DNA of 64,000 nucleotides. Source: an uncultured Eubacteriales bacterium. GTDB taxonomy: Bacteria > Bacillota > Clostridia > RGIG6154. Below the pieces are notes generated by a model. That model was not told the origin of the DNA, made no database searches, and worked only from the letters and a program-made list of their open reading frames with translations. Both the position numbers and the translations under genes were made by a program. Shown in pieces: positions 22,629-42,800 of the stretch. The DNA is taken from contig CAZMRY010000001.1 of NCBI GenBank assembly GCA_964568815.1, positions 14,055-78,054 of the forward strand. The letters run 5' to 3'. Each line of letters opens with the position of its first letter. The first letter of the stretch is position 1.

Positions 22629-22629
22629 A

Positions 22630-25463: not shown

Positions 25464-27761
25464 ATGGATTACAATTTAAAAGAAGTTGCAGGAAGAATCA
25501 GAGACCTCAGAGAAGCAAAAGGCTATACACCTGATGAGCTTGCTAAGCTTACTGGCGTAACTGTTGAGGATTACAAAATTCTTGAAGAAGGCGAAACTGA
25601 TTTCAGCTTCACTTTTATCTACAAGTGTGCAAAAGCTTGTGGTGTTGAAGTAGTTGATATTTTAGAGGGAACAAGTTCAACTCTTACATCATTTGCTATC
25701 ACAAGAAAAGGCGAAGGTCTTAAAATTATCAAAAAGCAAGGTGTTGTTTACAACAACTTAGCTCCTAAATTCAAAGATAAGCTTGCTGAACCTTTCCTTG
25801 TTAAATTCCCCTACCTTGCAGAAGAACAGAACGCTCCTATAAAGCTTAATTCTCATAACGGACAGGAATTTGATGTTATCGTTAAAGGATCACTTAAGGT
25901 TCAGGTTGGAAACCATGTAGATATACTCAACGAAGGCGATTCTATTTTCTATAACAGTATCATCCCCCACGGTATGATTGCAGTTAGTGAAGGAGGATGT
26001 GAATTCCACGCTGTTGTACTCAACCCACAGGATGGTCAGGTAAGTGAAGAATATCCTGAAGCTCCGTTTATTGCTGCAAAAGCTGCAGTTGTTCAGAACA
26101 AAACTGAAACAGTTGCAGATAAATTTATTGAATCATCCTATGATGAAAATGGTGTATTTAACGGAATTACATTCAAAAATGAAGATAAATTCAACTTTGC
26201 ATTCGACTGTGTTGATGCAATCGCTGAAAAGAATCCTGATAAACTTGCAATGATGTGGGTCGCAAATGACAAAACTGACCGAAAGTTTACTTTCGGCGAT
26301 ATGAAAAAATATTCTGCAAAAACTGCAAACTATTTTGAATCACTTGGTATCAAAAAAGGCGATACAGTAATGCTCGTTTTAAAGAGACATTATCAGTTCT
26401 GGTTCTGTATGCTTGCACTTCATAAAATCGGTGCTATTGCAATCCCTGCAACAAACCAGCTTGTTGAACACGATTTCACATACAGATATAAGGCTGCAAA
26501 GGTTAAAGCTATAGTTTGCACAGCGGATGGTGATGTTTCAACAGAAGCAGAAAAGGCTGCATCTGAGTTCCCTGGAATGATAAAAGTTCTTGTTGGCGGA
26601 GAAAAAGAAGGCTGGAACAACTTCAATGTTGAAATGGAAAGATTCAGCACACACTACTTCCGTAATGAAAACACTCCTTGCGGTGACGACCCGATGCTTA
26701 TGCTCTTTACTTCAGGAACAACAGGATATCCTCGTATTGCAACACATTCTTATAAATATGCATTAGGACATTATCCTACAGCTAAACACTGGCATAATGT
26801 TAACCCTGACGGACTTCACTTTACAATTTCAGACACAGGCTGGGGTAAAGCTCTCTGGGGCAAACTCTATGGACAATGGCTTTGCGAAGCAGCACAATTC
26901 ACATACGACTTTGACCGTTTCCATTCAGAAGATATTTTGCCAATGTTTGCAAAATACAATATCACAACATTCTGTGCTCCACCGACAATGTACAGATTCT
27001 TTATCAAAGAAGATTTATCACAATATGACCTTTCATCAATTGAGTATGCAACAACAGCAGGTGAAGCACTTAATCCTGAAGTATTTAACCAGTTCAAAAA
27101 AGCTACAGGGCTTACAATTATGGAAGGCTTTGGACAGACAGAAACAACACTTTCTATCGCAAACTTTGTTGGTACTACACCAAAAATCGGTTCAATGGGC
27201 AGACCAAGTCCACTTTATGATGTAGTAGTTTTAGATCCTGACGGAAAGGAATGTAAAACAGGTGATGCAGGTGAAATCTGTATCCGTACAAAAGAAGGTA
27301 CACCTTGCGGTCTCTTTATCGGCTATTACTTAGACGATGAGAAAACAAAGGAAGTATGGCACGACGGATACTACCACACAGGCGACCAGGCTACAATGGA
27401 CGAAGACGGATATCTCTGGTATGTGGGAAGAATTGATGATGTTATCAAATCATCAGGCTACCGTATCGGACCTTTTGAAATTGAAAGTGTTATTATGGAA
27501 CTTCCTTATGTTCTTGAATGTGCAATCACTCCTGTTCCAGATGAAGTTCGCGGACAGATTGTAAAGGCCACAATCGTACTCACAAAGGGTAATGAAGGCA
27601 CAGACGAGCTTAAAAAGGAAATTCAGGAATATGTTAAGACACATACAGCACCTTACAAATACCCAAGAATTGTTGAATTCGTTGACGAACTTCCAAAAAC
27701 AATCAGCGGTAAAGTAAGAAGAGTTGAAATCCGTAACAAAGACCTTGAGAAAAACAAATAA
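25464..27761 (+). CDS. fusion protein: XRE-type HTH plus cupin sensor domain (PuuR-like) fused to AMP-dependent acyl-CoA synthetase/ligase
   Basis: N-terminal HTH (LREAKGYTPDELAKLTGVTVEDYKILEEGE) followed by a cupin (GDSIFYNSIIPHGM). The ANL domain then carries FTSGTTGYPR, GQTE, YYHTGDQ and a C-terminal PKTISGKVRR. It is a continuous 765-aa ORF. Confidence 0.8.
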   Translation: MDYNLKEVAGRIRDLREAKGYTPDELAKLTGVTVEDYKILEEGETDFSFTFIYKCAKACGVEVVDILEGTSSTLTSFAITRKGEGLKIIKKQGVVYNNLAPKFKDKLAEPFLVKFPYLAEEQNAPIKLNSHNGQEFDVIVKGSLKVQVGNHVDILNEGDSIFYNSIIPHGMIAVSEGGCEFHAVVLNPQDGQVSEEYPEAPFIAAKAAVVQNKTETVADKFIESSYDENGVFNGITFKNEDKFNFAFDCVDAIAEKNPDKLAMMWVANDKTDRKFTFGDMKKYSAKTANYFESLGIKKGDTVMLVLKRHYQFWFCMLALHKIGAIAIPATNQLVEHDFTYRYKAAKVKAIVCTADGDVSTEAEKAASEFPGMIKVLVGGEKEGWNNFNVEMERFSTHYFRNENTPCGDDPMLMLFTSGTTGYPRIATHSYKYALGHYPTAKHWHNVNPDGLHFTISDTGWGKALWGKLYGQWLCEAAQFTYDFDRFHSEDILPMFAKYNITTFCAPPTMYRFFIKEDLSQYDLSSIEYATTAGEALNPEVFNQFKKATGLTIMEGFGQTETTLSIANFVGTTPKIGSMGRPSPLYDVVVLDPDGKECKTGDAGEICIRTKEGTPCGLFIGYYLDDEKTKEVWHDGYYHTGDQATMDEDGYLWYVGRIDDVIKSSGYRIGPFEIESVIMELPYVLECAITPVPDEVRGQIVKATIVLTKGNEGTDELKKEIQEYVKTHTAPYKYPRIVEFVDELPKTISGKVRRVEIRNKDLEKNK

Positions 27762-28029: not shown

Positions 28030-28305
28030 GATATTGCACTTGATATTATGTATGGCGGAAGAGGAACAGACGCTTACAATCAGGCAATGTCTACAAAAGT
28101 ATCTGAGTACAGCGATAAGGCACAAGGGACTGACCTTCTTGAAAAAGAGCTTGTTGCTGAATTTACAAGAACACAGCTTTCAAATGAGGGAGTTGTTGAA
28201 AGAATAGTTAAGGAAAACAGAAATGTTGCAACAAAAATCTACAATGCTCTTAAAAAAGCCTACACAAACATCAAAAATAAGCTTCAGGGAAAAGAAACTA
28301 GATAA
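28030..28305 (+). pseudogene. remnant (~92 codons) of a giant polyvalent-protein gene paralogous to 39859-49599
   Basis: DIALDIMYGGRGTDAYNQAMS...KELVAEFTRTQLSNEGVVERIVKENRNVATKIYNALKKAY aligns to the giant protein ...IAFDIMYGGENTDSYKEAYNT...KELVANFTMKRLDEKVINRIVMQNRNVAVRMFNALKAAY. It lies on the opposite strand from the giant gene, with in-frame stops on both sides. Confidence 0.7.
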
Positions 28306-28370
28306 GTGTATCGGTGAATTCAGAACACCCTAAAAACGGCACATATTTGATAAATTTAATATTAAACTAC

Positions 28371-28451: not shown

Positions 28452-28850
28452 CTAAAAATACTTCTTGCTATTCATCAAACACTGAATATTGTTTAATGTT
28501 TCACCAAAGCGTTGGAAGTGAATTACTTCACGCTGGCGGAGGAATTTAAGTGGTTCTAATACATCGTAGTCATCGCAGAGATCCATTAAATATTCGTAGG
28601 TTGCTCTTGCCTTTTGTTCTGCAGCCATATTTTCGGATAGATCGGTTATTGGGTCTGAGGTTACCTGAAGTGTTGCCGCAGAAAACGGATCGCCTGACGC
28701 AGACATTGGATATGCTCCGATACCATGGTCTACATAGGCATCTCCGTATGCGTTTTTGATTTGTTCCCTTGTTGCGCCCTTTAATAGCTGTCTTACCATT
28801 GTGCAAACAATTTCTTGATGTGCCAGTTCTTCCGTACCTACATCGTGTAT
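28452..28850 (-). CDS. manganese catalase / CotJC-like protein, 3' (C-terminal) segment of a split gene
   Basis: ...GTEELAHQEIVCTMV...GDPFSAATLQVTSDPITDLSENMAAEQKARATYEYLMDLCDDYDVLEPLKFLRQREVIHFQRFGE matches the CotJC/Mn-catalase family. Codons upstream of DVGTEE within ORF 28452..28928 are element-derived and not genuine. Confidence 0.8.
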   Translation of the reverse strand: MHDVGTEELAHQEIVCTMVRQLLKGATREQIKNAYGDAYVDHGIGAYPMSASGDPFSAATLQVTSDPITDLSENMAAEQKARATYEYLMDLCDDYDVLEPLKFLRQREVIHFQRFGETLNNIQCLMNSKKYF

Positions 28851-29082
28851 ATAATGCTCCTTTATATGAAAATGCCCTGAAACTCGCTCAAATACAGGTG
28901 TTTGAGCGTTGCCTGAAATATGGGACATGCCCTGAGTATGTAAGAAAAATCAAGGCAAAAGAACCTGAAATGATAGTAAATGTAAAGCTATCTGTAAATT
29001 GAAAATTAATTCAGACCAATTTGGGCGGAATTTAATTAGTCCCAATTTGGGACACATTTTTTTGCAGTATAAGAGGAACTAA

Positions 29083-29114
29083 CACCCGTCAATTGTGACG
29101 GGTGTTGTTTTTAT
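29083..29114 (+). terminator. perfect 12-bp hairpin plus T-run inside the element's left end
   Basis: caacacccgtca(attg)tgacgggtgttg followed by ttttt. It could insulate the cargo from read-through or act as a terminator-like protein site. Confidence 0.5.
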
Positions 29115-29247
29115 GCCGAAAAAGGTGTTTGTTTTAGCAAGCACGGCATTTGTACTCCCAAAAGCCACTTGTTTGTGGCTATGCCCCTAAAACCCCAACT
29201 TGATTTTGTTGAAAAACAATAAAAATGTTGAAATTCGCCATAAAATA

Positions 29248-29276
29248 TTGATTTTCATAATTGATTGTGCTATAAT
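29248..29276 (+). promoter_or_regulatory. sigmaA-type promoter of the controller/R-M operon
   Basis: TTGATT (29248-29253), a 17-nt spacer, then TATAAT (29271-29276). An upstream inverted repeat AGCCACttgtttGTGGCT at 29161-29182 is a candidate operator. Confidence 0.55.
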
Positions 29277-29326
29277 ATATAATAATGTATTGTAAATTAT
29301 TATTGTAGCCGAAAGGATGAATAAGA

Positions 29327-29527
29327 ATGGCAGTTACTTATAATAAATTGTGGCATCTTCTGCTTGACAGAGGTATGAAGAAAAAAGAGTTGCAGGAAAT
29401 GGCAGAGCTTACAAGCCATACAATGCTTAAACTTCGCAATAATCAGGATATTTCACTTGAAGCTATGCTGAAGATTTGTAAGTGCTTGGAATGCAATATG
29501 GAAGATATTATGGATGTAATCGAATAG
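29327..29527 (+). CDS. small XRE/Cro-type HTH protein, likely controller (C) protein of the R-M system
   Basis: 66 aa with KKELQEMAELTSHTMLKLRNNQDISLEAMLKICKCL as the HTH, and SD GGATGAATAAGAATG. It sits immediately upstream of hsdR. Confidence 0.6.
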   Translation: MAVTYNKLWHLLLDRGMKKKELQEMAELTSHTMLKLRNNQDISLEAMLKICKCLECNMEDIMDVIE

Positions 29528-29545
29528 TACGAAAGGAGGGGGCTT

Positions 29546-32071
29546 ATGAAAGCAAAAGAAGCTAAAGCTCGTTTGAAAATAAACAAACTACTCGAAGAAA
29601 CTGGTTGGCGTTTCTTTGACGATGAAAATGGAGCCGCAAATATTCAGGTTGAGCCGAATGTAAAAATAACAAAAACACAAATAGATTCATTAGGTGAAGA
29701 TTTTAATACAGTAAAAAACGGATTTGTAGATTTCTTGTTACTTGATGATAACGGAAAACCATTCGTAGTTCTTGAAGCTAAATCAGAAGATAAAGACCCA
29801 CTTGTAGGTAAAGAACAAGCAAGAGAATATGCAAAATCGTTGTATGTTAAATATGTAATTTTATCAAATGGAAATCAGCATTATTTTTGGAATATTACAA
29901 AAGGAAATCCTCAGATTATAACTGCTTTCCCGAGTTATGAGAGCTTAAAAGAAAGTAAGGCATTTACTGCCGATTCATCAAAATTGTATAAAGAAGAAAT
30001 CAGGAGCGACTATATAGCGGTCATTAAAAATCCTAATTATGAAGAAGCTCCCGAATATAAGAACGAAGAAACGAGACAGAAATTTATATTTGATAGCGGA
30101 TTGCGTTTTTTGAGACCCTATCAGGTTAATGCTTTGAAGAAATTACAAGCTTCTGTAAAAGACGGAAATCAACGATTCTTATTTGAAATGGCAACAGGCA
30201 CAGGAAAAACACTTACATCTGCTGCGGTTATCAGATTATTTTTAAGAAGCGGTAATGCAAATAGGGTTTTGTTTCTTGTTGATAGAATCGAACTTGAAAA
30301 TCAGGCAAAAAAGAATTTTCAAAACTATCTTTCCCCTGACTATCAAACAGTAATTTTTAAAGAGAATAAGGATGATTGGCGTAAGGCTGAAATTGTTGTT
30401 TCTACTGTGCAGACGCTTGTGGCAAACAATAAATATAAAAGATTTTTCAAGCCTACTGATTTTTCTTTGATTATAGCAGATGAAAGCCATCGCTCAATTA
30501 ACGGAAACAGCAGAGCAGTATTTGAATATTTCTTAGGATATAAGTTAGGACTTACAGCTACTCCGAAGGACTATATAAAAAATGTAGATATTGAAAAAAT
30601 GAAAAGTACAGACCCACGAGCTTGGGAAAAAAGACAGCTTCTTGACAGTTACAAAACTTTTGGATGTGAAAGCGGAGAGCCGACATTCAGATATTCGTTG
30701 CTTGACGGTGTTCGTGACGGTTATTTAATCAATCCTACAGTTGTTGATGCAAGAACTGAAATTACGACCAAACTGTTGGCAGAAGAAGGTTATGCGTTTA
30801 TAACAACAGGTGATGAGCAAGACGAAGAACAGGAAGAAACATTTTTCGCAAGAGATTTTGAACGTAAATTCTTTTCTGAAACTACCAATAAGGTTTTTGT
30901 AAAAACATTTATGGATAACGCATTAAGAGACCCAATAACAGGCGAAATCGGTAAGGGTATTATTTTCTGCGTAAGTCGCAGACACGCTGCAAAAATCACA
31001 CAGTTACTCAATGAATATGCAGATAAAATGTTTCCGGGCAAGTATTGTTCGGACTTTGCTATGCAGATAACATCAGATGTTATGAATGCACAGACTTATA
31101 CAACTAATTTCCAAAATAACAATTTAAGCGGTACTACTGTATTTTTGGATGGTTACAAATCGTCAAAAACAAGAATATGCGTAACAGTCGGTATGATGAC
31201 AACCGGATATGATTGTGAAGATTTGCTCAATATAGGCTTGTTAAGACCAATATTTTCGCCTACCGATTTTATTCAGATAAAAGGCAGGGGTACAAGAAAA
31301 GCAACTTTTGTTTATAGAGAAAAAATCAACGGAATTATTGAAGAACGCAAAGAAGAAAAAACTACCTTTAAGCTCTTTGATTTCTTTGGTAACTGTGAAT
31401 ATTTTGAAGAAAAATATAACTATGATGAAGTCATAAAGCTTCCGAGAACGCATACATCAGGTAATGGGACAGAGCTTCCAACACAATCTGAAGATTATGA
31501 GAATTTTAACCCTGACCCATTGGCTTCTATGACGGAAACAGCGATTGGGATTGAAGGTATGAAGATTGACAGAATGTTCTTCGATAAATTTGAAGAAACT
31601 GTCAAGGATGACCCGATTGCAAAGGAACAGTATGAGCAAGGCAATTATCAGGCTGTTATCAGCTATATAGATGAAAACATAATGAATAAGCCTAATGAAT
31701 ATTATACTTGGGACAAGCTGCGCAGAGCGATTGGAAGCGACAGACGAATCACTGCAAGAGAAATTCTTGATAAGATATTTGGTGTTTTGCCATTCTTTAA
31801 AAGTAAGAAACAGCTTGTTGATGATGAATTTGAGTCATTTATGCTTACAAGCAAAGTTCCGCAGGAAAAATATTGGGATATAAAGCATTTCTTTGAAACA
31901 TACATAACAGACAAAGATGTAAGACGGGCGATTGAGGACGGGACTTACCAGCTTTTGGGTACAGAAATCAGCACATATACAATGTCCGATTTGAAAAAGC
32001 TCGGTAAGGACTCAATGTTGCACATCGTAGATTATGTTAATGACAATGTGAATGTTTCAAGATTTATGTAG
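29546..32071 (+). CDS. hsdR: Type I restriction enzyme R subunit-like protein (PD-(D/E)xK nuclease N-domain plus SF2 DEAH helicase)
   Basis: N-terminal HsdR_N-type nuclease motif (VDFLLLDDNGKPFVVLEAK), Walker A MATGTGKTLT, DESH box IIADESHRS, and motif VI QIKGRGTR. At 841 aa it is shorter than canonical HsdR. Confidence 0.7.
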   Translation: MKAKEAKARLKINKLLEETGWRFFDDENGAANIQVEPNVKITKTQIDSLGEDFNTVKNGFVDFLLLDDNGKPFVVLEAKSEDKDPLVGKEQAREYAKSLYVKYVILSNGNQHYFWNITKGNPQIITAFPSYESLKESKAFTADSSKLYKEEIRSDYIAVIKNPNYEEAPEYKNEETRQKFIFDSGLRFLRPYQVNALKKLQASVKDGNQRFLFEMATGTGKTLTSAAVIRLFLRSGNANRVLFLVDRIELENQAKKNFQNYLSPDYQTVIFKENKDDWRKAEIVVSTVQTLVANNKYKRFFKPTDFSLIIADESHRSINGNSRAVFEYFLGYKLGLTATPKDYIKNVDIEKMKSTDPRAWEKRQLLDSYKTFGCESGEPTFRYSLLDGVRDGYLINPTVVDARTEITTKLLAEEGYAFITTGDEQDEEQEETFFARDFERKFFSETTNKVFVKTFMDNALRDPITGEIGKGIIFCVSRRHAAKITQLLNEYADKMFPGKYCSDFAMQITSDVMNAQTYTTNFQNNNLSGTTVFLDGYKSSKTRICVTVGMMTTGYDCEDLLNIGLLRPIFSPTDFIQIKGRGTRKATFVYREKINGIIEERKEEKTTFKLFDFFGNCEYFEEKYNYDEVIKLPRTHTSGNGTELPTQSEDYENFNPDPLASMTETAIGIEGMKIDRMFFDKFEETVKDDPIAKEQYEQGNYQAVISYIDENIMNKPNEYYTWDKLRRAIGSDRRITAREILDKIFGVLPFFKSKKQLVDDEFESFMLTSKVPQEKYWDIKHFFETYITDKDVRRAIEDGTYQLLGTEISTYTMSDLKKLGKDSMLHIVDYVNDNVNVSRFM

Positions 32072-32080
32072 GAGGAAGCT

Positions 32081-34600
32081 ATGTTAAAGTTTGATGTAAA
32101 AAGAAAAATCAATACCTTGCGGGATATTTTGGTTGGCAAAGTACCTGACCCGAAGGCACAGGTTGAACAAATTACCATTGCAATGATTTATAAATTTATG
32201 GATGATATGGATATTGAAGCAATGGAATTTGGTGGTGAACGTGTATTCTTTAAAGGCGAATACGAAAAATATGCGTGGTCAAATCTTATGAGTCCTGAAA
32301 ATAGCGGACAGAAAAGAGCAATGATTTATGCTGAGGGTATTGAAAAAATGGTAATGAATCAGAATATACCCCAGCTATTCAGAGATATATTCAGAGGTGC
32401 ATATATACCATACAGAGACCCCGAAACTCTTAATATGTTTTTAAAAGAAATCAGCGATTTTTCTTATGATAACAGCGAGGATTTGGGGAATGCCTTTGAG
32501 TATTTGCTTTTAATAATGGGTAGTCAGGGCGATGCAGGGCAGTTCAGAACACCGAGACACATTATTGATATGATGGTTGAAATTGTTGACCCGAAGAAAA
32601 ATGATACAATTCTTGATCCGGCGTGCGGAACAGCAGGATTTTTGATAAGTGCTTATAAGCATATCAAAAATACAAATGTGGACGAGAACGGAAATTCAAC
32701 CCTGACACCTGATGACAGAAGACGATTAACCGATAATTTTGCAGGATATGATATTTCTCCCGATATGGTTAGATTATCAAGAGTTAATATGTATTTACAC
32801 AATTTTACTAAACCTAACATAAGTGAATACGATACTCTTACAAGCGAGGAAAAATGGGATGATAATTATGATGTGATTCTTGCAAATCCTCCGTTTATGA
32901 CACCAAAAGGCGGTATTATGCCTCATAGACGATATATCACAGAAGCAAAACGCTCAGAAGTGTTATTTGTAGATTATATTGTTCAGCATTTGAATACAAA
33001 CGGAAAGGCTGCCATTATTGTTCCTGAAGGTATAGTTTTTCAGTCACAGTCTGCATATAAAAAGATTCGCCAAATACTTGTAGATGATGATTTTCTTTAT
33101 GGTGTTATTTCCTTGCCTGCCGGAGTTTTTAACCCTTATAGTGGTGTAAAAACAAGCATTTTGTTAATTGACAAAACACTAGCAAAGCAGAAAGATGATA
33201 TTCTTTTTATTAAAATGAATAATGATGGATTTGATTTAGGGGCACAACGCAGAGAAATAAAGAAAAATGATATTCCTGACATTGTTAATATCGTTAAGGC
33301 ATATCAAGAGAGTGAAGATGTCAGCGACAATCCGATTGTTACTTTGGCTGATAAGAAAAGGATTTGCGAGCAGGATTATATCCTTGTTGGAGAACGATAT
33401 AAACAAGATAGAATGATTGATAGCAAGTGGGAAATGGTCAAATTAGGCGACTTGTGTGATTTGCAAAATGGTTATGCATTTAAATCTTCTGATTATATTG
33501 ATTGCTCAAACACTTTAAATTTTAGAATGAGTAATATTAGACCGGATGGAAACGTGGATTTAGAATATGCAAAAAAACATCTTCCAAATGAGTATGCTGA
33601 AAAATTTCCAGAATATATCTTGTCATCAGGGGATGTTGTAATAGCGATGACCGATATGGCTAATGACCCCCAAATATTAGGAGTTCCAACTATTATCCCA
33701 GAACATTATGGTACATTACTTTTGAATCAGCGTGTAGGTAAATTCATAAATATCAATTGTGAAAAGTTGTATGTGCCATTTTTAAAACATGTACTTAATT
33801 GTGATACGGTGAAAAATTATTATAAATCACTCAGTGGCGGAGGATTGCAAATTAATTTAAGCAAAAAAGACTTATTACAACTACAAATTCCTGTTCCTCC
33901 ACTATCAATTCAGAGAGAAATTGTTGATGAAATAGAAAGTTATCAAAAAATTATTGACGGTGCAAGGCAAATTGTGAATAATTATAAGCCAACTATCAAG
34001 ATTAACCCTGAATGGGAAAATGTTGAAATTGGAAGTATGTATGATATTAGTTATGGTGTTACCATTTCTATTCCGCAAAATGAAGATGAAAACGGAATCA
34101 AAATTATATCTACTGCTGAGGTTGGTTTAGATGGACAGCTTGATTTGTCAAATATAAGAAAAGTACATTACGATAAAAAGTATGAAAAATTTGTTTTAGA
34201 GCCTGATACATTGCTATTTAATTGGAGAAATGCTCCAAAACACGTTGGTAAAACAGCTTGGTTTTTACAGGAGGACGATAAATATATAAGTGCCTCATTC
34301 TTGTTATCGTTGAAAAATAAAAATCCTAAATGTTACGATAATGGGTTTGTGTGGTGTGCTTTAAACAACCTTCGTGAAACCGGTTATTTTATGAGAAATG
34401 CAAGACAGGCTGTAAATCAAACGAATTTCAACGGGGACCAGCTTTCAAAAACAAAAATAGCTATACCAAATATAGAGGAACAACAGCATATTATGAAAGG
34501 CATATATGAGGAAATGGTTATTGTTGAAAAAAATAAGAGGTTGATTGAAATTTTTGAACAAAAAATAAAGGATAAAATTTCAGAAGTTTGGGGTGATTAA
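32081..34600 (+). CDS. fused Type I R-M methyltransferase-specificity protein (HsdM N-6 adenine MTase domain plus two HsdS-like target-recognition domains)
   Basis: SAM-binding motif I LDPACGTAGFL and motif IV VILANPPF. C-terminal tandem TRD-like segments (KLGDLCDLQNGYAFKS... and VEIGSMYDISYGVTIS...) each show HsdS conserved spacing. 839 aa. Confidence 0.75.
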   Translation: MLKFDVKRKINTLRDILVGKVPDPKAQVEQITIAMIYKFMDDMDIEAMEFGGERVFFKGEYEKYAWSNLMSPENSGQKRAMIYAEGIEKMVMNQNIPQLFRDIFRGAYIPYRDPETLNMFLKEISDFSYDNSEDLGNAFEYLLLIMGSQGDAGQFRTPRHIIDMMVEIVDPKKNDTILDPACGTAGFLISAYKHIKNTNVDENGNSTLTPDDRRRLTDNFAGYDISPDMVRLSRVNMYLHNFTKPNISEYDTLTSEEKWDDNYDVILANPPFMTPKGGIMPHRRYITEAKRSEVLFVDYIVQHLNTNGKAAIIVPEGIVFQSQSAYKKIRQILVDDDFLYGVISLPAGVFNPYSGVKTSILLIDKTLAKQKDDILFIKMNNDGFDLGAQRREIKKNDIPDIVNIVKAYQESEDVSDNPIVTLADKKRICEQDYILVGERYKQDRMIDSKWEMVKLGDLCDLQNGYAFKSSDYIDCSNTLNFRMSNIRPDGNVDLEYAKKHLPNEYAEKFPEYILSSGDVVIAMTDMANDPQILGVPTIIPEHYGTLLLNQRVGKFININCEKLYVPFLKHVLNCDTVKNYYKSLSGGGLQINLSKKDLLQLQIPVPPLSIQREIVDEIESYQKIIDGARQIVNNYKPTIKINPEWENVEIGSMYDISYGVTISIPQNEDENGIKIISTAEVGLDGQLDLSNIRKVHYDKKYEKFVLEPDTLLFNWRNAPKHVGKTAWFLQEDDKYISASFLLSLKNKNPKCYDNGFVWCALNNLRETGYFMRNARQAVNQTNFNGDQLSKTKIAIPNIEEQQHIMKGIYEEMVIVEKNKRLIEIFEQKIKDKISEVWGD

Positions 34601-35789
34601 TTTGGGAGCTGATGAGATCCGCAAAAATCTTGGCGAAGCATTATCTATATTTGCAAAAACAGTAGAAAATGTAACAAATTCAATGGATGTAGAAGCAACA
34701 GTAGCGTACAGAGATTTTGTAGATGATTTGATGTCATATTTTCCAATGACCAAAGTAAATACTCAAGCAGGTACTTATGACCAATACCTACAAGATTTAA
34801 GAAAAACTGTTGTCGATAATTATGATAAAAATAATTATCAGGTAGCATATTTTTATGCCCACTTGATTTTTATGAGTTATATTTATTACTCGGTTGAATT
34901 AGCTTATAGATTTTTGCCGCAAAAGACAAAAGACCAATACGATATGATAAATGCTTATAGTGGAAATAATAAACCTAATATCGCAGACACTCCCAATGTT
35001 TATTCGTTCAGTAAAATACCCGAAAAAGAAATTTTTAAAGTGTTTTATGCTATTGGCATGGATGTGCAATACATTCAACAGCTTTCATCGTATGTTAAGG
35101 AACGTGATGACTATGCACATGCTACGGGAAAAGGAAATATAGATGATGATGCTTTTAAAACTAACATTAAAACTGTAAAAAGAAATATGGGTACAGTTCA
35201 TAAATTGTTTCAACCATACATCAAAGATAAATATATTGCTTTTTTAATAGATAAGTGTGAATTGTCTCACGAAACAGTTGAAATGGCAATTTCTGATTAT
35301 ATTGTTGATGAAAATTTTTCATATCAGGATATTGATTACCTATGTAATTTAGGAATTAGCAATATAAGAAACGAAAACGATATATTTAAAAGTAAATATA
35401 GTTTGGTAAGAAAAGTTCATTGTGCTTTTATTGAACATTGCATAGAAACTTATGGTATTTCCGAGCCAACCAATTTAGGTAATCTAAGAAACGATACATA
35501 TTTATATTTTAAATACAAAGACAATGCAGAGAAATACATTGAAAGAGAACTCGGAATAAATGGCTACGAATGTGTTAAAAACGGCGGAGAGTTCCCATTG
35601 TATGAGTGTCCTGAATGTGGCGAGGAGCAGTTGGCTCACAATGTAGAAAACGGCAAATTCCATTGTTTTCATTGTGATGAGGATTACACTTCTGAAACAT
35701 TGACATTTTGTTCTCGTTGCGGAGCATTGACAGGAAAAAATGAAATGGATATATGTAAAAACTGTATTGAGGATATGGTGGAAGAATAA
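34593..35789 (+). CDS. hypothetical protein with C-terminal tandem Zn-ribbons, translationally coupled to the R-M methyltransferase gene
   Basis: The start overlaps the hsdMS stop by 8 nt. The C-terminus reads YECPECGEEQLAHNVENGKFHCFHCDEDYTSETLTFCSRCGALTGKNEMDICKNCIE, four CxxC pairs. There is no recognisable catalytic motif in 398 aa. Confidence 0.5.
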   Translation: MINLGADEIRKNLGEALSIFAKTVENVTNSMDVEATVAYRDFVDDLMSYFPMTKVNTQAGTYDQYLQDLRKTVVDNYDKNNYQVAYFYAHLIFMSYIYYSVELAYRFLPQKTKDQYDMINAYSGNNKPNIADTPNVYSFSKIPEKEIFKVFYAIGMDVQYIQQLSSYVKERDDYAHATGKGNIDDDAFKTNIKTVKRNMGTVHKLFQPYIKDKYIAFLIDKCELSHETVEMAISDYIVDENFSYQDIDYLCNLGISNIRNENDIFKSKYSLVRKVHCAFIEHCIETYGISEPTNLGNLRNDTYLYFKYKDNAEKYIERELGINGYECVKNGGEFPLYECPECGEEQLAHNVENGKFHCFHCDEDYTSETLTFCSRCGALTGKNEMDICKNCIEDMVEE

Positions 35790-35790
35790 C

Positions 35791-35829
35791 AAAAAATCTG
35801 CATCTCTATTAAAGAAATGCAGATTTTTT
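35791..35829. terminator. bidirectional terminator between convergent genes
   Basis: aaatctgcat(ctctattaaaga)atgcagattt with T/A runs on both sides. Confidence 0.55.
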
Positions 35830-36475
35830 ATTTCAAAGGATTTTCAAGTATATCTTCAATATTACAACCGAGAATACGGGAGAGTTTATAAAGGGTTTGA
35901 GCTTGTGCTTTGTCAATATCGTTGACTTTTTGTTCATACATTTGGATTGAACGGAGCTTAACGCCTGACATTTCTGCAAGCTCGGACTGAGATATTCCTC
36001 TGCTTTCACGGATGCGTTTTAGCTTTGTTTCAAGCTCGGCTTTGTTATAAAAGCTCTCCATACTGTCTATAAATTGAGTTATATCCATTTCGTGATAAAC
36101 CGAGTACATAGAAATAATTTCAGATAGCGGAATACGTTCAAAAATATCTTTGAAGCGATGTCCCGATGCCCACTGATATTCAGCGAGTGCCCAGCCTGCC
36201 CAATACTCGGGCGAGGCTCCTTCGCTATTTGTTGCAGGGGGTATTTTTTTATCCTTATACGCTTTTTTTATTATTTCACGTGCAAGCTCAACACCCGACA
36301 TTCCTGAAATTACAGCCGGATTTCCACTTTCAAATTTTTGTGCATATCCCGTTGTAACAAAGAGCGAAGCAATCCAATTTGCTTTAAACCCGCAGTCGTT
36401 TATGGCATAGTCAAGCATATCTGCAAGACATTCCTTTGCATCATTCAAATATAATCCGCTGTATGCGTGAGTCAT
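35828..36475 (-). CDS. hypothetical protein with C-terminal XRE HTH
   Basis: 215 aa whose C-terminus ESRGISQSELAEMSGVKLRSIQMYEQ...LYKLSRILGCNIEDIL is an XRE-type HTH. It overlaps the upstream gene by 35 nt. Confidence 0.5.
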   Translation of the reverse strand: MTHAYSGLYLNDAKECLADMLDYAINDCGFKANWIASLFVTTGYAQKFESGNPAVISGMSGVELAREIIKKAYKDKKIPPATNSEGASPEYWAGWALAEYQWASGHRFKDIFERIPLSEIISMYSVYHEMDITQFIDSMESFYNKAELETKLKRIRESRGISQSELAEMSGVKLRSIQMYEQKVNDIDKAQAQTLYKLSRILGCNIEDILENPLK

Positions 36476-37139
36476 CGTTTTTCAGCTCCTCTCTCAGAAT
36501 ATCCATTACAAAAATGTCATCTCGGTAGGATTTACTCTTTTTTATTTCCTGACGGTATGTTTTTCTTGCTGTTGTATCTCTGTCAAGAAATTTTGGATAA
36601 TAGATGCTTTTGTCAACTGGTGATGCATCTATAAATTTAATTTGTTCAAATGCTTTTTGTGATACCAAAACAGTCTGTTCTCCGAGCTTACCGAGCTTTA
36701 ATGCCTGATTTAAGCTGCGAAGCGGAAGTCCGTTTGACACAAAGCTTTCTGCATATCGAAAATATGAATCATCAGCACGATAGCCGACAATCACATCATA
36801 GCTTGATGTATCAATAGAATAATGCTCTATGATATATTCTCTTGCATCAACGGCTATTTCAGAACTCAGCTTGAATGTGCGATATTTAAGGAGTATGGCA
36901 ATCCAATTCAAAACAGTATGATTTCCGTCCATTAAATTTAAGGTTTTAAGTCCGTCAGTATTTAATGTATAACGGTTTATAAATCCGTCTGTGTTCTGCT
37001 TGCAAGCCCATTCCTTTGCCATTTCCTCTGAGCGTGTGCAGTAAAAGCCTTTTCCGTAATCATTATGCTCATTTCCTATATTTATATCTGGTATCTCTAT
37101 AATGTGGTCTGTTCCGTGAAGTAAAGTTATTGTATTCAT
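36441..37139 (-). CDS. hypothetical protein, DUF3990-like (N-terminal LLHGTD...DYGKGFYCT motif)
   Basis: 232 aa. The motif is reminiscent of the DUF3990 family, which co-occurs with small partner proteins on mobile elements. That assignment is from memory only. Confidence 0.4.
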   Translation of the reverse strand: MNTITLLHGTDHIIEIPDINIGNEHNDYGKGFYCTRSEEMAKEWACKQNTDGFINRYTLNTDGLKTLNLMDGNHTVLNWIAILLKYRTFKLSSEIAVDAREYIIEHYSIDTSSYDVIVGYRADDSYFRYAESFVSNGLPLRSLNQALKLGKLGEQTVLVSQKAFEQIKFIDASPVDKSIYYPKFLDRDTTARKTYRQEIKKSKSYRDDIFVMDILREELKNDDSRIQRIIFE

Positions 37140-37319
37140 ATATACCTCCTATATCATTACAATGTTACAATGTTATTATATCATCACAATGATAGTTTGT
37201 CAATCCTTTTAATAAAATTTTTATGTCAGGTCAGATTTTGGTATGCAATGTGCTTTAATAGAAGTAGCATAGTACAAGCGATGATTTGCATAAAATGTCA
37301 GGAGGGGCGGTGTTGTTTG

Positions 37320-37493
37320 ATGAGTAAAGAACTTGTTGTAACTTGCAGTGAAAATAATCTCGATGAAAACAAAGAGTTTATTCTTAATATTCAAAAAGCA
37401 ATGCTTGCTACTCTTTTTGAGGGTGGAAAAATTGATATGGGGCAATATGAAGATGCTATAAGATTACTCGGAAAAAATTTTTCTAAACAATAA
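37320..37493 (+). CDS. small hypothetical protein (57 aa) immediately upstream of the serine recombinase, a candidate recombination directionality factor
   Basis: MSKELVVTCSENNLDENKEFILNIQKAMLATLFEGGKIDMGQYEDAIRLLGKNFSKQ. A GGAGGGG SD lies 14 nt upstream, and an in-frame TTG at 37317 gives better spacing. The ORF track's longer 37170 start lacks an SD. Confidence 0.35.
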   Translation: MSKELVVTCSENNLDENKEFILNIQKAMLATLFEGGKIDMGQYEDAIRLLGKNFSKQ

Positions 37494-37548
37494 TTTTTTG
37501 CAAGTCTTTATATTATGCGATAAAATTTAGAGGAAAGGAGATGATGAA

Positions 37549-39174
37549 ATGATTTATGTAGCGGCATATTGCAGAGTTTCAACGGACAAGGACGACCAAG
37601 CCAACAGCTTTGAAAGTCAAAAATCGTATTTTGAGGAGTACATAAAACGAAATCCCGATTGGGAGTTATACGAAATTTACGCAGATGAGGGCTTGTCAGG
37701 CACAAACACCAAAAAGCGTGCTGCCTTTAATAAAATGATTGCAGACGCACATTTGGGTAAATTCAACCTAATACTTACAAAGGAAGTAAGCAGATTTGCA
37801 AGAAATACAGTTGATACTTTGCAATACACAAGGGAGCTGAAAGCACTTAATATCAGTGTTTATTTTGCACTTGATAATATTGATACCCTTGCACCTGACG
37901 GAGAACTTAGACTAACCATCATGGCATCACTTGCTCAGGAAGAAAGCCGAAAGACCTCTGAGCGTGTAAAATGGGGACAAAAAAGACAAATGGAAAAAGG
38001 TGTGGTATTCGGTCGTGATATGCTCGGATATGATGTGAGAAACGGCGTTTTGCATATCAACGAAAACGGTGCGGAAATTGTAAGGCTTATTTACCACAAA
38101 TTTGTATATGAGAAAAAAGGCACATACACTATTGCAAGAGAATTGAGAGAAGCGGGTTATAAAACCATAACAGGCAATGCAATATGGTCAAATACTGTTA
38201 TTTTGAAAGTGTTGCGTAATGAAAAGTATTGCGGTGATTTAACACAAAAGAAAACCTATACACCCGATTATCTTTCGCATAAAAAGAAATATAATCACGG
38301 AGAAGAAGAATTTGTAACTTTGACAGACCATCACGAGCCTATCGTTTCAAGAGAGACTTGGGATATGGCACAGCTTGAGCTTGACAGACGTTCTCCTGAT
38401 GATTCAATCAAGTTAAGGCACAGTAACCGTTACCCATTGTCGGGCAAAATCCAATGCGGAGTATGCGGAAACCGATTTGTTTCAAGAACTAAAAAAAGAA
38501 AAGACGGAAGCAGATACAAAGCGTGGAGATGCTGTGAAGCAACACAGCACGGATTGCCCAAGATTGACAAAGCCGAAAATCATATCGGTTGCTCGGTTAA
38601 TTCACAAATTCGTGATGAATATTTTATGCTTGTCATTCAAAAGGTTATAGAAAGCCTGAATGTAAATAAAAAAGCAGTTTTGGACGGTGTTTTAAGTGTA
38701 TTAAAAACTGTATTTTCCACGAGTAAAAATTCTCCTGAAGATACAGACGGTATAAAAAAGAAAATAGAAAATCTTACATCAAAAACTAAGCGTCTTTTGG
38801 ATTTGTATTTGAGTGAGGATATAACAAAAGAAGAATATCGCACAAAAAAAGAAAACTGCGAAAATGAAATTTCGCAGTTAAATGAAAAAATGAAAGCTAT
38901 CCAAAAAGAAACACATTATATGTATGACAGTAATAATGCAATAACTGAAATCAGGGAATATCTTTCAGATATACTTTATGCAAAAAAACAGGACGAAATA
39001 TTTTATAAAAACATAATTGACAAGATTGTAGTTTTTGACAGAGAGCATTTAGATGTTTATTTAAATTTGCTCCCGCACAGATGGAAAACGGTGTTAAATT
39101 CAGCGTTGAGAGCTGATGACCTGTGTGGGAGCAATAAGCCCACGATTTACCTATATCGGTTAAGACTCCCTTAG
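37549..39174 (+). CDS. large serine recombinase (resolvase/invertase N-domain, recombinase domain, zinc ribbon, coiled-coil)
   Basis: MIYVAAYCRVSTDKDDQ carries the catalytic Ser in an RVS context. A CGVCGNRF...WRCC zinc ribbon and a C-terminal coiled-coil complete the 541 aa. SD GGAAAGGAG. The 3' end overlaps the att core and runs antisense into the catalase 5' segment. Confidence 0.9.
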   Translation: MIYVAAYCRVSTDKDDQANSFESQKSYFEEYIKRNPDWELYEIYADEGLSGTNTKKRAAFNKMIADAHLGKFNLILTKEVSRFARNTVDTLQYTRELKALNISVYFALDNIDTLAPDGELRLTIMASLAQEESRKTSERVKWGQKRQMEKGVVFGRDMLGYDVRNGVLHINENGAEIVRLIYHKFVYEKKGTYTIARELREAGYKTITGNAIWSNTVILKVLRNEKYCGDLTQKKTYTPDYLSHKKKYNHGEEEFVTLTDHHEPIVSRETWDMAQLELDRRSPDDSIKLRHSNRYPLSGKIQCGVCGNRFVSRTKKRKDGSRYKAWRCCEATQHGLPKIDKAENHIGCSVNSQIRDEYFMLVIQKVIESLNVNKKAVLDGVLSVLKTVFSTSKNSPEDTDGIKKKIENLTSKTKRLLDLYLSEDITKEEYRTKKENCENEISQLNEKMKAIQKETHYMYDSNNAITEIREYLSDILYAKKQDEIFYKNIIDKIVVFDREHLDVYLNLLPHRWKTVLNSALRADDLCGSNKPTIYLYRLRLP

Positions 39175-39256
39175 CTTCGTCGGTTGGCATGGTGTATCTT
39201 TGAGAAAGATAGCGGACTGATGCACCAAGTTCACCGTCCGGTCCGCCATACTCCAT
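39148..39256 (-). CDS. manganese catalase / CotJC-like protein, 5' (N-terminal) segment of the split gene
   Basis: MEYGGPDGELGASVRYLSQRYTMPTDEAKGVLTDIG matches the CotJC N-region (EQYGGADGELAAALRYLNQRYT...LLTDIG). Residues after DIG within ORF 38951..39256 are antisense to the recombinase gene and not genuine. No SD precedes the ATG. Confidence 0.75.
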
Positions 39257-39356
39257 TTGATATAATTAATAAATTTGTCGAAAATGTGAAAAGCATCACA
39301 TAAAGACATGCTTCTTTAATTGGTAAAATTTACTAAATTTTATCAAGGAGCGCATT

Positions 39357-39614
39357 ATGTTAAACTTAATCAAAAGAGCAGTTGGAGACACATTGTATCA
39401 AACAAGAATACAAAATGGACTATCGCAAGAGAAAATGGCCGAAAGGTGCTTTATGTCTTACAGGCAATACAATGACCTAGAAAACGCCAAACGTTTACCC
39501 ACACTTAATTCTTTTATAGATATTGTAATTGCTTTTGATATAAATGTCAACTCAATAATTAAATTAATCAAGGAAAGGGGGTACTTTCCCAATGATGACA
39601 AAAACTCGGCATAA
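39357..39614 (+). CDS. XRE-family HTH protein
   Basis: 85 aa with QTRIQNGLSQEKMAERCFMSYRQYNDLENAKRLPTLNSFIDIVIAF as the HTH, and SD CAAGGAGCG. Confidence 0.5.
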   Translation: MLNLIKRAVGDTLYQTRIQNGLSQEKMAERCFMSYRQYNDLENAKRLPTLNSFIDIVIAFDINVNSIIKLIKERGYFPNDDKNSA

Positions 39615-39828
39615 ATACAAATACACTTACCGCAAAGAGTTTCATAGCGATTTAAACGGCTATGTTGCTTATGGTATTGAACTTACATCAGGTAATTATC
39701 TTCTTGGTTATTTTCCCGATGTCTTTCTTGAAGAACAGAAGGCAAAGGATTTTGTAAATATGTGCACTAAAGAACAGATTGAACCAGGGCAAATGCAGGA
39801 TGCTATAGAAGAAGCTTTACTATGCTAA
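39592..39828 (+). CDS. hypothetical protein (78 aa)
   Basis: Overlaps the upstream gene by 23 nt. It has no recognisable motif. Confidence 0.35.
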   Translation: MMTKTRHKYKYTYRKEFHSDLNGYVAYGIELTSGNYLLGYFPDVFLEEQKAKDFVNMCTKEQIEPGQMQDAIEEALLC

Positions 39829-39833
39829 AAACA

Positions 39834-39860
39834 AGAGGAGCATTTCCGCTCCTCTGTTTT
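39834..39860. terminator. bidirectional rho-independent terminator
   Basis: agaggagc(atttcc)gctcctct is an 8-bp perfect stem with a T-run on the plus strand and an A-run upstream. It abuts the giant gene's stop codon. Confidence 0.65.
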
Positions 39861-42800
39861 AGTTTAGAAGGTTATATATTCTGTTAGCTCGGTTGAGTGG
39901 TACTCCGATTTTGCGAAGTCTTGATATTTTATCTACCTTCTTACTTCCCTTTCCATCCTTTTGACTATTCATAACCTTAGTCACATAATAGAAAGTTCTT
40001 GCATTCATAGAATTCTCACCATAGTTTTGAATATATGCGTCATATCCTGCCTGCTGATTTTCTGTAAGACTTGAGTAATAATATCCATCCACACTGCTAA
40101 AATCATATTGTGTTTTTGTTTCCCCAAACAACGCTATATTTACTTCTTGTTTTTCTTCAGGTGAAAGACTGTTGTCATTCGCAAGTGCTTCTCTCTTTAT
40201 AACTGAAAGTTCAGGCTCATATTCCCATTTTTCGTATACTTTTTTTGTTCTGCCATCTGTCATTGCGAAAAACTTTTCATATTTAGTTTCTTTGCTCACA
40301 TCATCATGCACATCATAATCATAATACAGTTTAGCAACCTTTTCAGGTGCAATACCAAAATCAATTAAATCCTGTGCTTTTTCTCTTTTACCTTTTTTGC
40401 CATCTTCACCTTTTGAGTAAAAGCTGATTTCTACTTCCGCCTTTTGTGATGGTGTAAGACCTTTGGTGCTTTCAAGTGTTTCGTGCCTTACCTGAGTTGA
40501 TGTTTTTGATTTGTCGCCGTCTTTTACGCTTTTAGCTTTGCTTGCAGCATTAATTGCATTGTATACATCAGTACGGCTTGTTTTTTTATCTTCTATAATT
40601 CTTTGATAAAGCTCTGTCTGTTCTGATGTCAGACTTCCAAAACCTTCCTCAACCCAACCACGAGAACCTTTTGTAGAACTTTTACCCCAAACTGTAGTTT
40701 TAATTGCATTACCAATGTTTTTGTCTATTGGATATTGCAGTTCTTCTTCACCTTTGTTATTAATTTTATAACTTCCACCTTTGTTGTATGCGTTAATACC
40801 TTCAACTGTCTTTTTGAGCTGTCCTGCTCCCGCCGGTAGAGTTCGATATGATAGAGGTACTACAAACTCGTTAAGAATAATATCCATTTTCTTTTTATTA
40901 CTAACCTTTTTAGGGTCACTAAATATTTTCACAAGCTCTGTTACATCGAACATGCCTGCAGATGCAGGGATTCTGCCGTCAGTTATAATTGATGTGAATG
41001 GTAAATCTTCCAAAACATTTACAACAGAATTTCCAATTGCAACAGCTGGATCTTCTGCTTCATCTTCAAGTTCAATCGCTCCTTCTTCAATTAACATTTC
41101 AATTGCATCAAAAGCATTAGGTACTCTAAGTTTTGTAAAATCATCAATTCCATCAAGAACAATACCAAGAGGGCTTTGTATTCCGTCATTACCAAACCAC
41201 TTTTCAAACAAATCAGCGAGCAATTCTGCAGCTAAACTATATTTGATAAATCTCCACGATGCTCTAACAATCGCTTCCGCCACTCCTTTAGAATCTTTCT
41301 TTGCATATCTGCTTAAATCTTTTGTGATGTTAGATATAAGATTGTTTGTTTCAAGCATATACTGTGTAATTACTTTACCGCTTTTCGAGTAAAAAAGGGT
41401 TGGCATACTTCCATAGCTTCGTCCACCTATAAGCTTTTTTGTATATGCATCCGCCTCTCTTATAGCCTCCTCACTTGGCATATTTCTTTTTACTATATTT
41501 TGATGATATCTTGCTCTCCAAATTAAGCCAGATGTTAGTGCATCTGTAAATTCAAGCGGTTTTCCTATTGCATCCAGAAAATGCTTTGGCTTAGACATCG
41601 TTTTAACTCTATCAGGATTTCCAACCTTAACTCTGTTAGTCAAGAATGTGCTCTTATCATCGAATCCGTCAGGTGTTTTTATATTCTTTAATGTGTGAAA
41701 TATACCATAAGCTAAATCAACGTATGAGAGTTCTTTTCTTGCTTGTGGAATAGTGGCAAAGTTCATAAACGGTGTTTTTGCATTTCCAACAATCATATTC
41801 GCTCCAATCTTACCTTGGAATCTGCTCCAATTTCTCAAAGTTCTTCGACCAAGATTATCTTCAACTACTCTATCCAAAAATCCTACTTGCTTACCTGCTA
41901 ATACATTTGCATATTTATCAAGATTAACAGCGTAGTTTCCAAGCTTATTTTTGTACCCTTCCTGAAGCTTTTCACTTATCTGTTTCAGTTTATCTTCATC
42001 TGTTAAAGTGTCATTCTCACCTATTTCTGCGATTTTCTCTTTAACACCGTCATCTGAATACTTGTATCTTATAGCGTTAGAAAAAGCTCGTACATTCTGA
42101 ATATCATCAGTATGGAAAATAACATCACAAACACCTGTAACATATTTTGCAAAGCCATCTATAGCATCATAGTCTGTAATACTATCTTTACTTCTATGAA
42201 GTGCATTTGCAAGCCATTTAATGCCGGGTTTTCGGTCTGCTGTTCTTCCCATTATTTCTGTAGGTAGACTTGTTACAGTATCAGACATAAAGAATTTATT
42301 CTCCAAATCAAAACCGAAAGCTCGTCCAAGTTCATTTAAGAATGAATCGCCTTTATTTTCAACAAAGTGTGGAAAATAATTTTTTCTGTATTCAACAGGT
42401 GCATATCCGTTCCTGATGCGAGCTTCATTCATCATTTCAAAAAGCTCGTTGTAAATCTTTCTGAATTCACCGATACACTTATCTATCTTGCCATAATCAA
42501 GCTTAGGATTTGCATCAATAAAAACATCTGCATCCCTTTTGAGCTGTGCAAGCTTCTCCCTGTCCTTCTCTATCCAGGATTTCTTACTGTTGACATTCTC
42601 TGCTTTTTGTGATACATTATCAGTGTGAACATCGTTATTCCAAACGTCTTGGACGTACATCTGAGGGACTTTACTGTCATTTAGAGCGGAATCGATGTTC
42701 CATTTTTTATTTATTGCATCTTTCAAGCCTGGAATATCCGGTATTGTTCCTGTAGAGACCTTTATCATTTGCTTATTTGAGAGAATTTTTCCTTTGTCGC

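Follow-up and report, generated by a model that had tools for sequence, protein, structure and literature searches.

The locus described here raises the question of whether a gene for a CotJC-type manganese (Mn) catalase, which lies in pieces separated by mobile DNA, is put together again during sporulation, and by which means. The pieces were identified in a stretch of 64,000 nucleotides from an uncultured Eubacteriales bacterium (assembly GCA_964568815.1, contig CAZMRY010000001.1, positions 14,055 to 78,054), which is called the window below and to which all positions given without a locus name refer. An earlier note on this DNA had described a cotJC-type gene split by an element with a large serine recombinase, and had predicted that recombination within a shared core would restore the conserved DIGTEELAH helix in frame. 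Both statements were confirmed. It is near certain that the 10.3-kb segment between the gene fragments is a serine-recombinase element which was integrated site-specifically in cotJC. For the whole mechanism, in which the element would be excised in the mother cell under the control of a directionality factor made from a sigmaE-type promoter, a probability of about 0.6 is estimated. The gene and the element are organized as follows:

28452-28838, minus strand: cotJC 3' segment (codons 63-189 and the stop codon at 28452-28835, then the left junction copy)
39149-39253, minus strand: cotJC middle segment (codons 28-62), ~105 bp flanked on either side by a mobile element
28839-39151: intervening element of 10,313 bp including one copy of the crossover dinucleotide, as defined by comparison of the junctions

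The two CotJC/Mn-catalase fragments are located on the minus strand at 28455-28835 and 39149-39253, with the 10,313-bp element between them. The first is part of an open reading frame (ORF) at 28452-28928 (minus strand), which contains ...HDVGTEELAHQEIV..., reads ...HDVGTEELAHQEIVCTMVRQ... through to the stop codon and matches the Pfam family Mn_catalase with 4e-29. The second is part of an ORF at 38951-39256 (minus strand), which starts with MEYGGPDGELGASVRYLSQRYTMPTDEAKGVLTDIGKS... and matches the same family with 5e-6. In-silico joining of the fragments resulted in ...GVLTDIGTEELAHQEIV..., the same sequence as in intact orthologues. With the joined sequence as query, thousands of CotJC-type proteins were matched, the best of which was P0001, a protein of 189 amino acids with 90% identity that reads GLLTDIGTEEMAHQEI across the predicted joint. 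By tblastn, residues 28-62 of P0001 were placed at 39253-39149 and residues 58-189 at 28850-28455, each with 88.6% identity, and the two segments are in phase on the window pieces, without a gap or a change of frame. In addition, the site of the 10.3-kb element was found empty in L192, a metagenomic contig of a close relative whose cotJC is ~80-82% identical at the nucleotide level, and here the gene reads as P0001 across the joint. The match of fragments and joint to intact genes is not due to chance, and the uninterrupted orthologue in relatives contains the junction that had been predicted.

The reconstruction matches Pfam PF05067 and aligns to the Mn-catalase structures 6j42 and 1jku, with DIGTEELAH opposite DIAIEEFSH. 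However, the joined product consists of 163 amino acids and not of 166, as given by the earlier note, and it is not a complete CotJC: residues 1-27 of the 189-residue orthologue are present nowhere in the 64-kb window. Since these residues align to solved Mn-catalase structures in the orthologues, they belong to the Mn-catalase fold. That the host is an endospore former is confirmed by a gene for a small acid-soluble spore protein (SASP) of the alpha/beta type at ~18336-18500 (minus strand), which is 55% identical to a Clostridium perfringens SASP; the presence of such a gene had been noted before.

At the right end of the element, the recombinase gene was identified:

37549-39174, plus strand: large serine recombinase of 541 amino acids (Pfam Resolvase 3e-33, Recombinase 9e-23, Zn_ribbon_recom 1e-7)

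The Resolvase domain spans residues 4-152, the Recombinase domain residues 173-281 and the Zn_ribbon_recom domain residues 296-348, followed by a long C-terminal region; the N-terminus, YCRVST, includes the expected serine. As described in the earlier note, the gene runs across the core, an architecture of the skin/SPbeta class. The ORF ends 23 nt beyond the right junction, with its last 8 codons consisting of host DNA (antisense cotJC). With the window recombinase as query and one genome per species, 80 related loci were obtained with 53-91% identity, nearly all of them from Clostridia (Oscillospiraceae, Lachnospiraceae, Acutalibacteraceae, Monoglobus, Roseburia, Yeguia, Parablautia and many metagenome-assembled genomes). 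The ORF reaches across the crossover in 63 of 72 loci, so that its last residues are host-encoded and variable. A conserved alternative C-terminus of the recombinase in the excised form was considered and rejected, the tails being 3-121 amino acids long and unconserved.

In ~70 of the 80 loci, a cotJC 5' fragment ending at residue 62-70 was found on the opposite strand, directly at the 3' end of the recombinase gene, and 7 of these ~70 also show the 3' fragment, at a distance of 3-10 kb upstream. Small relatives of the window element comprise 3.0-3.3 kb, with little beyond the recombinase and a small ORF; the same recombinase family is also present at the ends of predicted prophages of 37-47 kb. 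In loci with recombinases that are at least 97% identical, the host cotJC genes are only 60-96% identical in their DNA (median 71%), which shows that the elements still move from one species to another and insert again at the same two bases. Such recent and repeated transfer, and the use of the family by prophages, would also be understood if the elements were not excised in development at all. The helix would then serve as a reliable attB site in a gene dispensable for growth, cotJC would be inactive or replaced by a paralogue, and excision would serve transfer only, with the small ORF as a directionality factor or regulator connected to transfer and not to sporulation. This alternative is weighed below, together with the evidence on the small ORF.

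The exact site of insertion was derived from the two junctions:

28837-28838: left crossover dinucleotide, CC on the plus strand (GG of the Gly62 codon), shared by attL and attR throughout the loci compared, as no other dinucleotide is
39150-39151: right crossover dinucleotide, CC on the plus strand, as the left copy

The hexamer TACCTA is present at both ends, at 28835-28840 and 39148-39153. The earlier note had placed the right copy correctly, but its left copy (28841-28855) was 10 nt too high. The junctions of the relatives all break after GAY-ATH-GG, and in all loci with both ends seen, the GG of the Gly62 codon is the sole dinucleotide always common to the attachment (att) sites attL and attR. 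The third base of this codon is constant in attL and is therefore element-derived, and it shows a wobble-like variation in attR, where it is therefore host-derived. Because of the sole shared dinucleotide and this pattern of the wobble base, GG is assigned in silico as the crossover dinucleotide. The attB site falls within the L-T-D-I-G-T-E-E helix, where cotJC is most conserved. The reconstructed attP site, ...GGAGCATTATATACACGATGTA-GG-TAAATCGTGGGCTTATTGCTCC..., contains GGAGCA and CACGAT.TA blocks in both arms and is a near-palindrome, with a dyad symmetry of 18/28 versus 8/28 for attB.

Five loci (L020, L022, L024, L026 and L084) share the same recombinase-proximal attP arm, but with GG in place of CC. 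In these loci, the element is inserted in the opposite orientation and the recombinase reads into the cotJC 3' segment. For serine integrases, a flipped central dinucleotide leads to insertion in the opposite orientation, and the orientation in the five loci is as predicted by this rule; judged by their att sites, they represent a natural flip of the central dinucleotide. A separate feature was seen on the element side of attL in L032-L086, a sub-family with 55% identity, where, read in the direction of cotJC, a T-run comes after a GC-rich hairpin (GCCCCTGAAATGTTCC.TCAGGGGC) of the attP arm. This arrangement looks like an intrinsic terminator, which would stop cotJ transcripts at the border of the element.

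The only genes common across the family are those for the recombinase and for a small protein encoded directly upstream, and the cargo is not conserved between elements. In the window, the small ORF and the promoter candidates around it are located as follows:

37267-37296, plus strand: sigmaE-type promoter candidate (-35 GCATAGT, TACAAGC box, -10 CATAAAAT)
37320-37493, plus strand: small ORF of 57 amino acids, MSKELVVTCSENNLDENKEFILNIQKAMLATLFEGGKIDMGQYEDAIRLLGKNFSKQ (MSKELVVTC...), a candidate recombination directionality factor (RDF), with homologues directly upstream of the recombinase
37498-37526, plus strand: sigmaA-like promoter candidate for the recombinase, TTGCAA-N17-TAAAAT, read from the window only

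Homologues of the small ORF were found in both recombinase sub-families, as 41 distinct sequences of 57-73 amino acids with the core pattern NIQKA.L..L.E.....(I/L)...Q.E....LEK. About 31 nt ahead of the start codon, a promoter motif is conserved amid otherwise unconserved DNA. Its boxes in the window are GCATAGT at 37267-37273 (with ATA at 37269-37271) and CATAAAAT at 37289-37296. The consensus, cTcGttATAtgGtACAA.Ca.t.gctCATAtAtT, was found with an unchanged offset in 62 of 70 distinct elements, and it is conserved across sub-families with recombinases that are ~55% identical. ATA occurs at positions -20 to -18 (20 nt before CATA) in 53 of 64 cases and AC at -19/-18 in 0 of 64, which gives the form ATA-N17-CATAnAnT. 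Between the -35 and -10 boxes, a (G)TACAA(R)C box (37274-37280 in the window) is conserved at the same position in ~60 related loci. It was considered as a binding site for SpoIIID and rejected, since the C. difficile consensus KRTAACARK is matched at only 7 of 9 positions and the position is unusual.

As a control, the DNA upstream of cotJA was analyzed in the same loci by a position-based scan upstream of cotJC, which replaced an earlier control with the CotJA protein as probe in which only 6 loci were found. Here, CATAnnnT boxes cluster with an A at -19 and a C at -18, for example, in gAACC-N16-CATACTATa. In C. difficile, promoters for sigmaE and sigmaK share the -10 box and differ at -35 by ATA versus AC, and the operons of the cotJC homologues (cotCB, cotD) are sigmaK-dependent. 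By resemblance to these motifs, the promoter of the small ORF would be of the sigmaE type and that of the cotJ operon of the sigmaK type. The assignment of cotJC to the sigmaE class in the earlier note is not in agreement with this pattern.

On the basis of these data, the following mechanism is proposed. The 10.3-kb segment is a site-specific integrative element and would belong to the class that intervenes in sporulation genes, like skin, SPbeta, vfbin and gin. Its recombinase would recognize attB in the cotJC helix and exchange strands at the GG of the Gly62 codon, and the unit of small ORF, recombinase and att site would form a mobility module that corresponds to rdf-int-att in SPbeta. Expression of the recombinase probably starts from its own sigmaA-like promoter, and the 57-residue protein encoded upstream is probably the directionality factor. 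Made from a sigmaE-type promoter, this protein would appear early and only in the mother cell, where it would switch the recombinase to excision between attL and attR, so that the gene is rejoined ahead of the sigmaK-dependent expression of the cotJ operon. In the forespore, the element would be retained. The junction predicted for the rejoined gene is ...GATATAGGTACGGAA..., and the attP site predicted for the excised circle is ...CACGATGTAGGTAAATCGTG....

One of the closest models for this sequence of events is the skin element in sigK of C. difficile, for which it is known that the recombinase CD1231 is sigmaA-driven and constitutive and that a 72-residue RDF, CD1234, depends on sigmaE and SpoIIID and confines excision to the mother cell. 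By analogy, the conserved small ORF with its sigmaE-type promoter versus the sigmaK-type cotJ promoter would fit an excision in the mother cell as found for skin. Both are small, non-phage-like elements in a mother-cell gene with a large serine recombinase at the edge, and both encode a small partner protein without a known family, here with a sigmaE-type promoter candidate for the partner and a sigmaA-like candidate for the recombinase. However, the target is a sigma-factor gene in C. difficile and a coat-protein gene here, the small ORF lies directly upstream of the recombinase in the window element, the recombinases are only distantly related, and the window system is known in silico.

The window copy of cotJC is interrupted a second time, at a position designated site 1:

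39243-39256: second insertion site (site 1), codons ~27-31, Q-Y-G-G, where the cotJC homology ends
39257-64000, minus strand: prophage of at least 24.7 kb, which adjoins cotJC at site 1 and continues past the window end

Full-length orthologues carry ~27 further N-terminal residues, MWIYQKNLEFPVNIKTPDPRMAKLLIT, before the point where the homology begins in the window (39253). To the right of 39257, the prophage contains genes for helix-turn-helix (HTH) and DUF6514 proteins, a giant protein of 3246 amino acids (39859-49599, minus strand), a holin, an amidase, and tail-fibre, head and portal proteins; a megablast search against INPHARED gave no match. The far end of the prophage, with the integrase and exon 1 of cotJC, was sought by means of the junction sequence, the portal protein and the terminase-side protein of a related contig. 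The contigs end earlier, and no recombinase or cotJC was present in those loci. Both the prophage integrase and exon 1 must lie beyond the window. Since the prophage cuts the gene at codon 27/28, excision of the 10.3-kb element alone does not rebuild cotJC, in contrast to the expectation of the earlier note: it would leave only codons 28-189, without a promoter and without a ribosome-binding site. The start codon and the first 27 codons lie outside the window, as do cotJA and cotJB, which precede cotJC in relatives. A complete cotJC in this genome requires two independent excisions.

Breaks within the same ~12 bp of site 1 were identified in L001, L004-L006 and L192, and in L022, L032, L071, L077, L082, L087-L089, L098-L100 and L102, where fragments of the middle exon only are present that start at residue 23-32. 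Several database ORFs also diverge at this breakpoint, just ahead of YGGPDGE. The breakpoint at site 1 is not random. In L001, the order is cotJA, cotJB, codons 1-31 of cotJC, a 3.6-kb element and the remainder of cotJC, L004 and L005 contain a RepA_N/DUF6017 element at site 1, and in L006 the recombinase reads into the downstream part of cotJC. The arrangement in L088 is that of the window, with the site-2 recombinase (the one at the Gly62 codon), the middle exon and then a prophage with the gene for a giant protein. The isolate Roseburia sp. 1XD42-69 (L032) contains cotJB, exon 1 and the middle exon, with its own recombinase on each of two elements; the 3' segment lies past the end of the contig. 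The site-1 element of L001 (positions 4040-7640, GCA_045605445.1) is a mini-element which carries only a 482-residue serine recombinase, two small ORFs and an HTH and DUF3990 pair.

With two interruptions, with codons 1-27 absent from the window and with an ATG at 39256 that has no ribosome-binding site, the cotJC of the window might be regarded as a relic of successive insertions of an island, a prophage and a nearby phage remnant (the decayed giant-protein fragment just downstream, at 28033-28325), which is never reassembled. This explanation is considered quite improbable. Both fragments are stop-free and share 88.6% protein identity with the intact orthologue; compared to the intact gene L003, the nonsynonymous divergence (dN) is 0.067 for the fragments and 0.06 for the 3' segment, with the synonymous divergence (dS) saturated. 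Recombinase, small ORF and att sites are intact as well, and the double interruption recurs elsewhere, including the Roseburia isolate with one recombinase per element. The phage remnant itself (28033-28325, plus strand) is part of a second giant-protein gene, in which the stretch for residues 772-858 (50% identity) runs directly into that for residues 2371-2380. It contains 27 nt identical to 42459-42485 and lies 126 nt downstream of the cotJC stop codon, convergent with cotJC; an older prophage or a rearrangement are candidates for its origin.

A third position of integration was found in L191 (positions 2890-3010, Logan DRR768634). In this locus, the end of a prophage with 73% nucleotide identity to window positions 39274-40838 is joined to cotJC at ~codon 64/65, and its att-proximal arm differs from that of the window prophage. 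This suggests that related phages have swapped their integration modules yet still target cotJC. In total, at least three positions of the gene (codons ~27-31, 62 and ~64/65) are used by unrelated recombinases. From these observations, a wider picture is put forward tentatively, as a working hypothesis with somewhat less than an even chance. In gut Clostridia, cotJC may be a stacking platform with at least three closely spaced positions, each hit by different lineages of serine recombinases that are borne by prophages, mini-elements, defence islands and a RepA_N-type element. The gene, often in three pieces, would be put together again in the mother cell ahead of the action of sigmaK, by at least two independent excisions timed by sigmaE, the site-2 elements would share one homologous small directionality factor and its promoter, and the split between soma and germ line would let defence islands persist at no cost.

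Several points weigh against the proposed excision in the mother cell. For the small ORF, no match was obtained in Pfam, NCBIfam or sequences of the Protein Data Bank (PDB), and it has no homology to known RDFs. The sigma factors are assigned by the resemblance of promoter motifs, and the small-ORF promoter has a spacing that exceeds the one in the B. subtilis sigmaE consensus by one base. The cotJC fragments are stop-free in all of the ~70 loci and no decayed fragment was seen; however, as the elements were recently mobile, intact fragments are no proof of a selection for reassembly. The window copy, moreover, is cut twice, with its first exon and the prophage integrase unseen. The excised form or circle was sought via the predicted attP with two patterns in IMG/VR and two in the metagenomes of the Joint Genome Institute (JGI), and none was found. 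Coat formation in C. difficile and B. subtilis has been reported not to require genes of the cotJC type, so that a simple inactivation of cotJC might be tolerated.

The last two points would also be expected if the helix served only as a reliable attB site as described above. C. difficile contains three cotJC paralogues, and the use of at least three positions by unrelated recombinases is as for a generally tolerated target. Nevertheless, a locus without developmental excision is considered rather unlikely. The promoter of the small ORF was kept across very divergent elements, and with CATAnAnT as the -10 box and ATA at -35 it has the form recognized by mother-cell sigma factors and not a sigmaA -10 box. 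Furthermore, all characterised elements of this architecture in mother-cell genes are excised in the mother cell, and no decayed cotJC fragment is present among the ~70 loci. The preferred reading therefore remains that a directionality factor under sigmaE control brings about excision in the mother cell.

Beside skin, further intervening elements can be compared to the window element. The SSR unit of SPbeta in spsM of B. subtilis (attL-sprB-sprA-attR) has the same order rdf-int-att with an integrase that reads into the att site, it interrupts a late mother-cell gene for the cell envelope, and the same recombination unit is present on full prophages and small islands. In contrast to SPbeta, the 10.3-kb element is devoid of phage genes, a stress-inducible promoter was not identified, and the sequences belong to a different family. 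The gin element in gerE of B. cereus ATCC 10987 is, like the window element with its relatives of 3.0-3.3 kb, a non-prophage intervening element, but the window element has ~7 kb of defence cargo, and the target gene and the class of the host (Clostridia) differ. In heterocysts of cyanobacteria, developmental genes are likewise restored by recombinase excision in a terminally differentiated cell (the nifD, fdxN and hupL elements), and a single heterocyst gene can be interrupted by several elements. Since the phylum and the developmental programme are different, this serves as an analogy only.

The characterised interrupted sporulation genes are sigK, spsM, spoVFB, spoVR, gerE and yabG, almost all in Bacilli or C. 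difficile. The earlier note had considered an interruption of cotJC to be undescribed, which was overstated: cotJC was listed as an integration target by Abe et al. 2013, as cited in bioRxiv 10.1101/2021.11.22.469490, and a skin-like element in cotJC of Laceyella sacchari was reported by Galperin et al. 2022. These cases share the target gene and a recombinase-bearing intervening element with the window, but, as far as the citing paper represents the former, they are single-line survey entries from Bacilli-type hosts. In the literature searched, in which Abe et al. 2013 was represented by the citing paper, no description was found of the insertion point in cotJC, the att sites, a Clostridia-wide family, multiple hot spots, or the shared small ORF and its promoter. 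The target is already known; the three-piece gene and the family-wide module are worth following up.

The remaining genes of the 10.3-kb element are cargo, consisting of a type I restriction-modification (R-M) system and a DUF3990/HTH pair:

29327-29527, plus strand: Cro/C1-type HTH protein of 66 amino acids, a possible controller or repressor (Pfam HTH_26 5e-16)
29546-32071, plus strand: type I restriction subunit R-like protein of 841 amino acids (Pfam ResIII and HSDR_N; PADLOC REase_I 2e-60)
32081-34600, plus strand: fused HsdM-HsdS of 839 amino acids (Pfam N6_Mtase 4e-58 and two Methylase_S; PADLOC MTase_I 4e-98 and Specificity_I 5e-38)
34593-35789, plus strand: protein of 398 amino acids with a C-terminal double zinc ribbon (only weak DZR matches)
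35828-36475, minus strand: HTH protein of 215 amino acids, PDC-M42B-like partner of the DUF3990 protein (Pfam HTH_3; PADLOC PDC-M42B 7e-6)
36441-37139, minus strand: DUF3990 protein of 232 amino acids, a PDC-M42A candidate defence protein (Pfam DUF3990 3e-42; PADLOC PDC-M42A 4e-46)

The R-M cargo seen in the earlier note was found again, with the functions R, M and S encoded together in the R-like protein and the M-S fusion. The NCBIfam matches of the system, including the one of the R-like subunit to the EcoAI-family R protein, are under the curated cut-offs. For the 398-residue zinc-ribbon protein, no match was obtained in NCBIfam or PADLOC. The PDC-M42A and PDC-M42B genes are adjacent and overlapping; PDC-M42 is a candidate system of PADLOC with an unproven role in defence. 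The pair on the L001 mini-element is 45% (HTH) and 47% (DUF3990) identical to the one in the window, and such a pair may be carried repeatedly as a passenger or serve to stabilise the elements. Effectively, the window element amounts to a small defence island.

Elsewhere in the window, two adjacent genes at 22615-25089 and 25464-27761 (both plus strand) code for AMP-binding, acyl-CoA-synthetase-like proteins with unusual N-terminal fusions, one with a xylose-isomerase-like TIM barrel and the other with an HTH_3 and a cupin domain.

If the proposed mechanism is true, the same logic of an intervening element would operate across many uncultured gut Clostridia of the Lachnospiraceae, Oscillospiraceae and other families, here on a coat gene and by means of a small ORF, a recombinase and an att site that together form a compact module and have a defined crossover. 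From the family, a set of orthogonal serine integrases could be drawn whose attB and attP sites are known, together with a candidate directionality factor, and the doubly interrupted gene would be a natural test of whether the excision of two elements is coordinated. For the bacteria that carry them, the elements would bring in anti-phage defence at what may be no cost to the host, since repair of the gene would be confined to the cell that is going to die.

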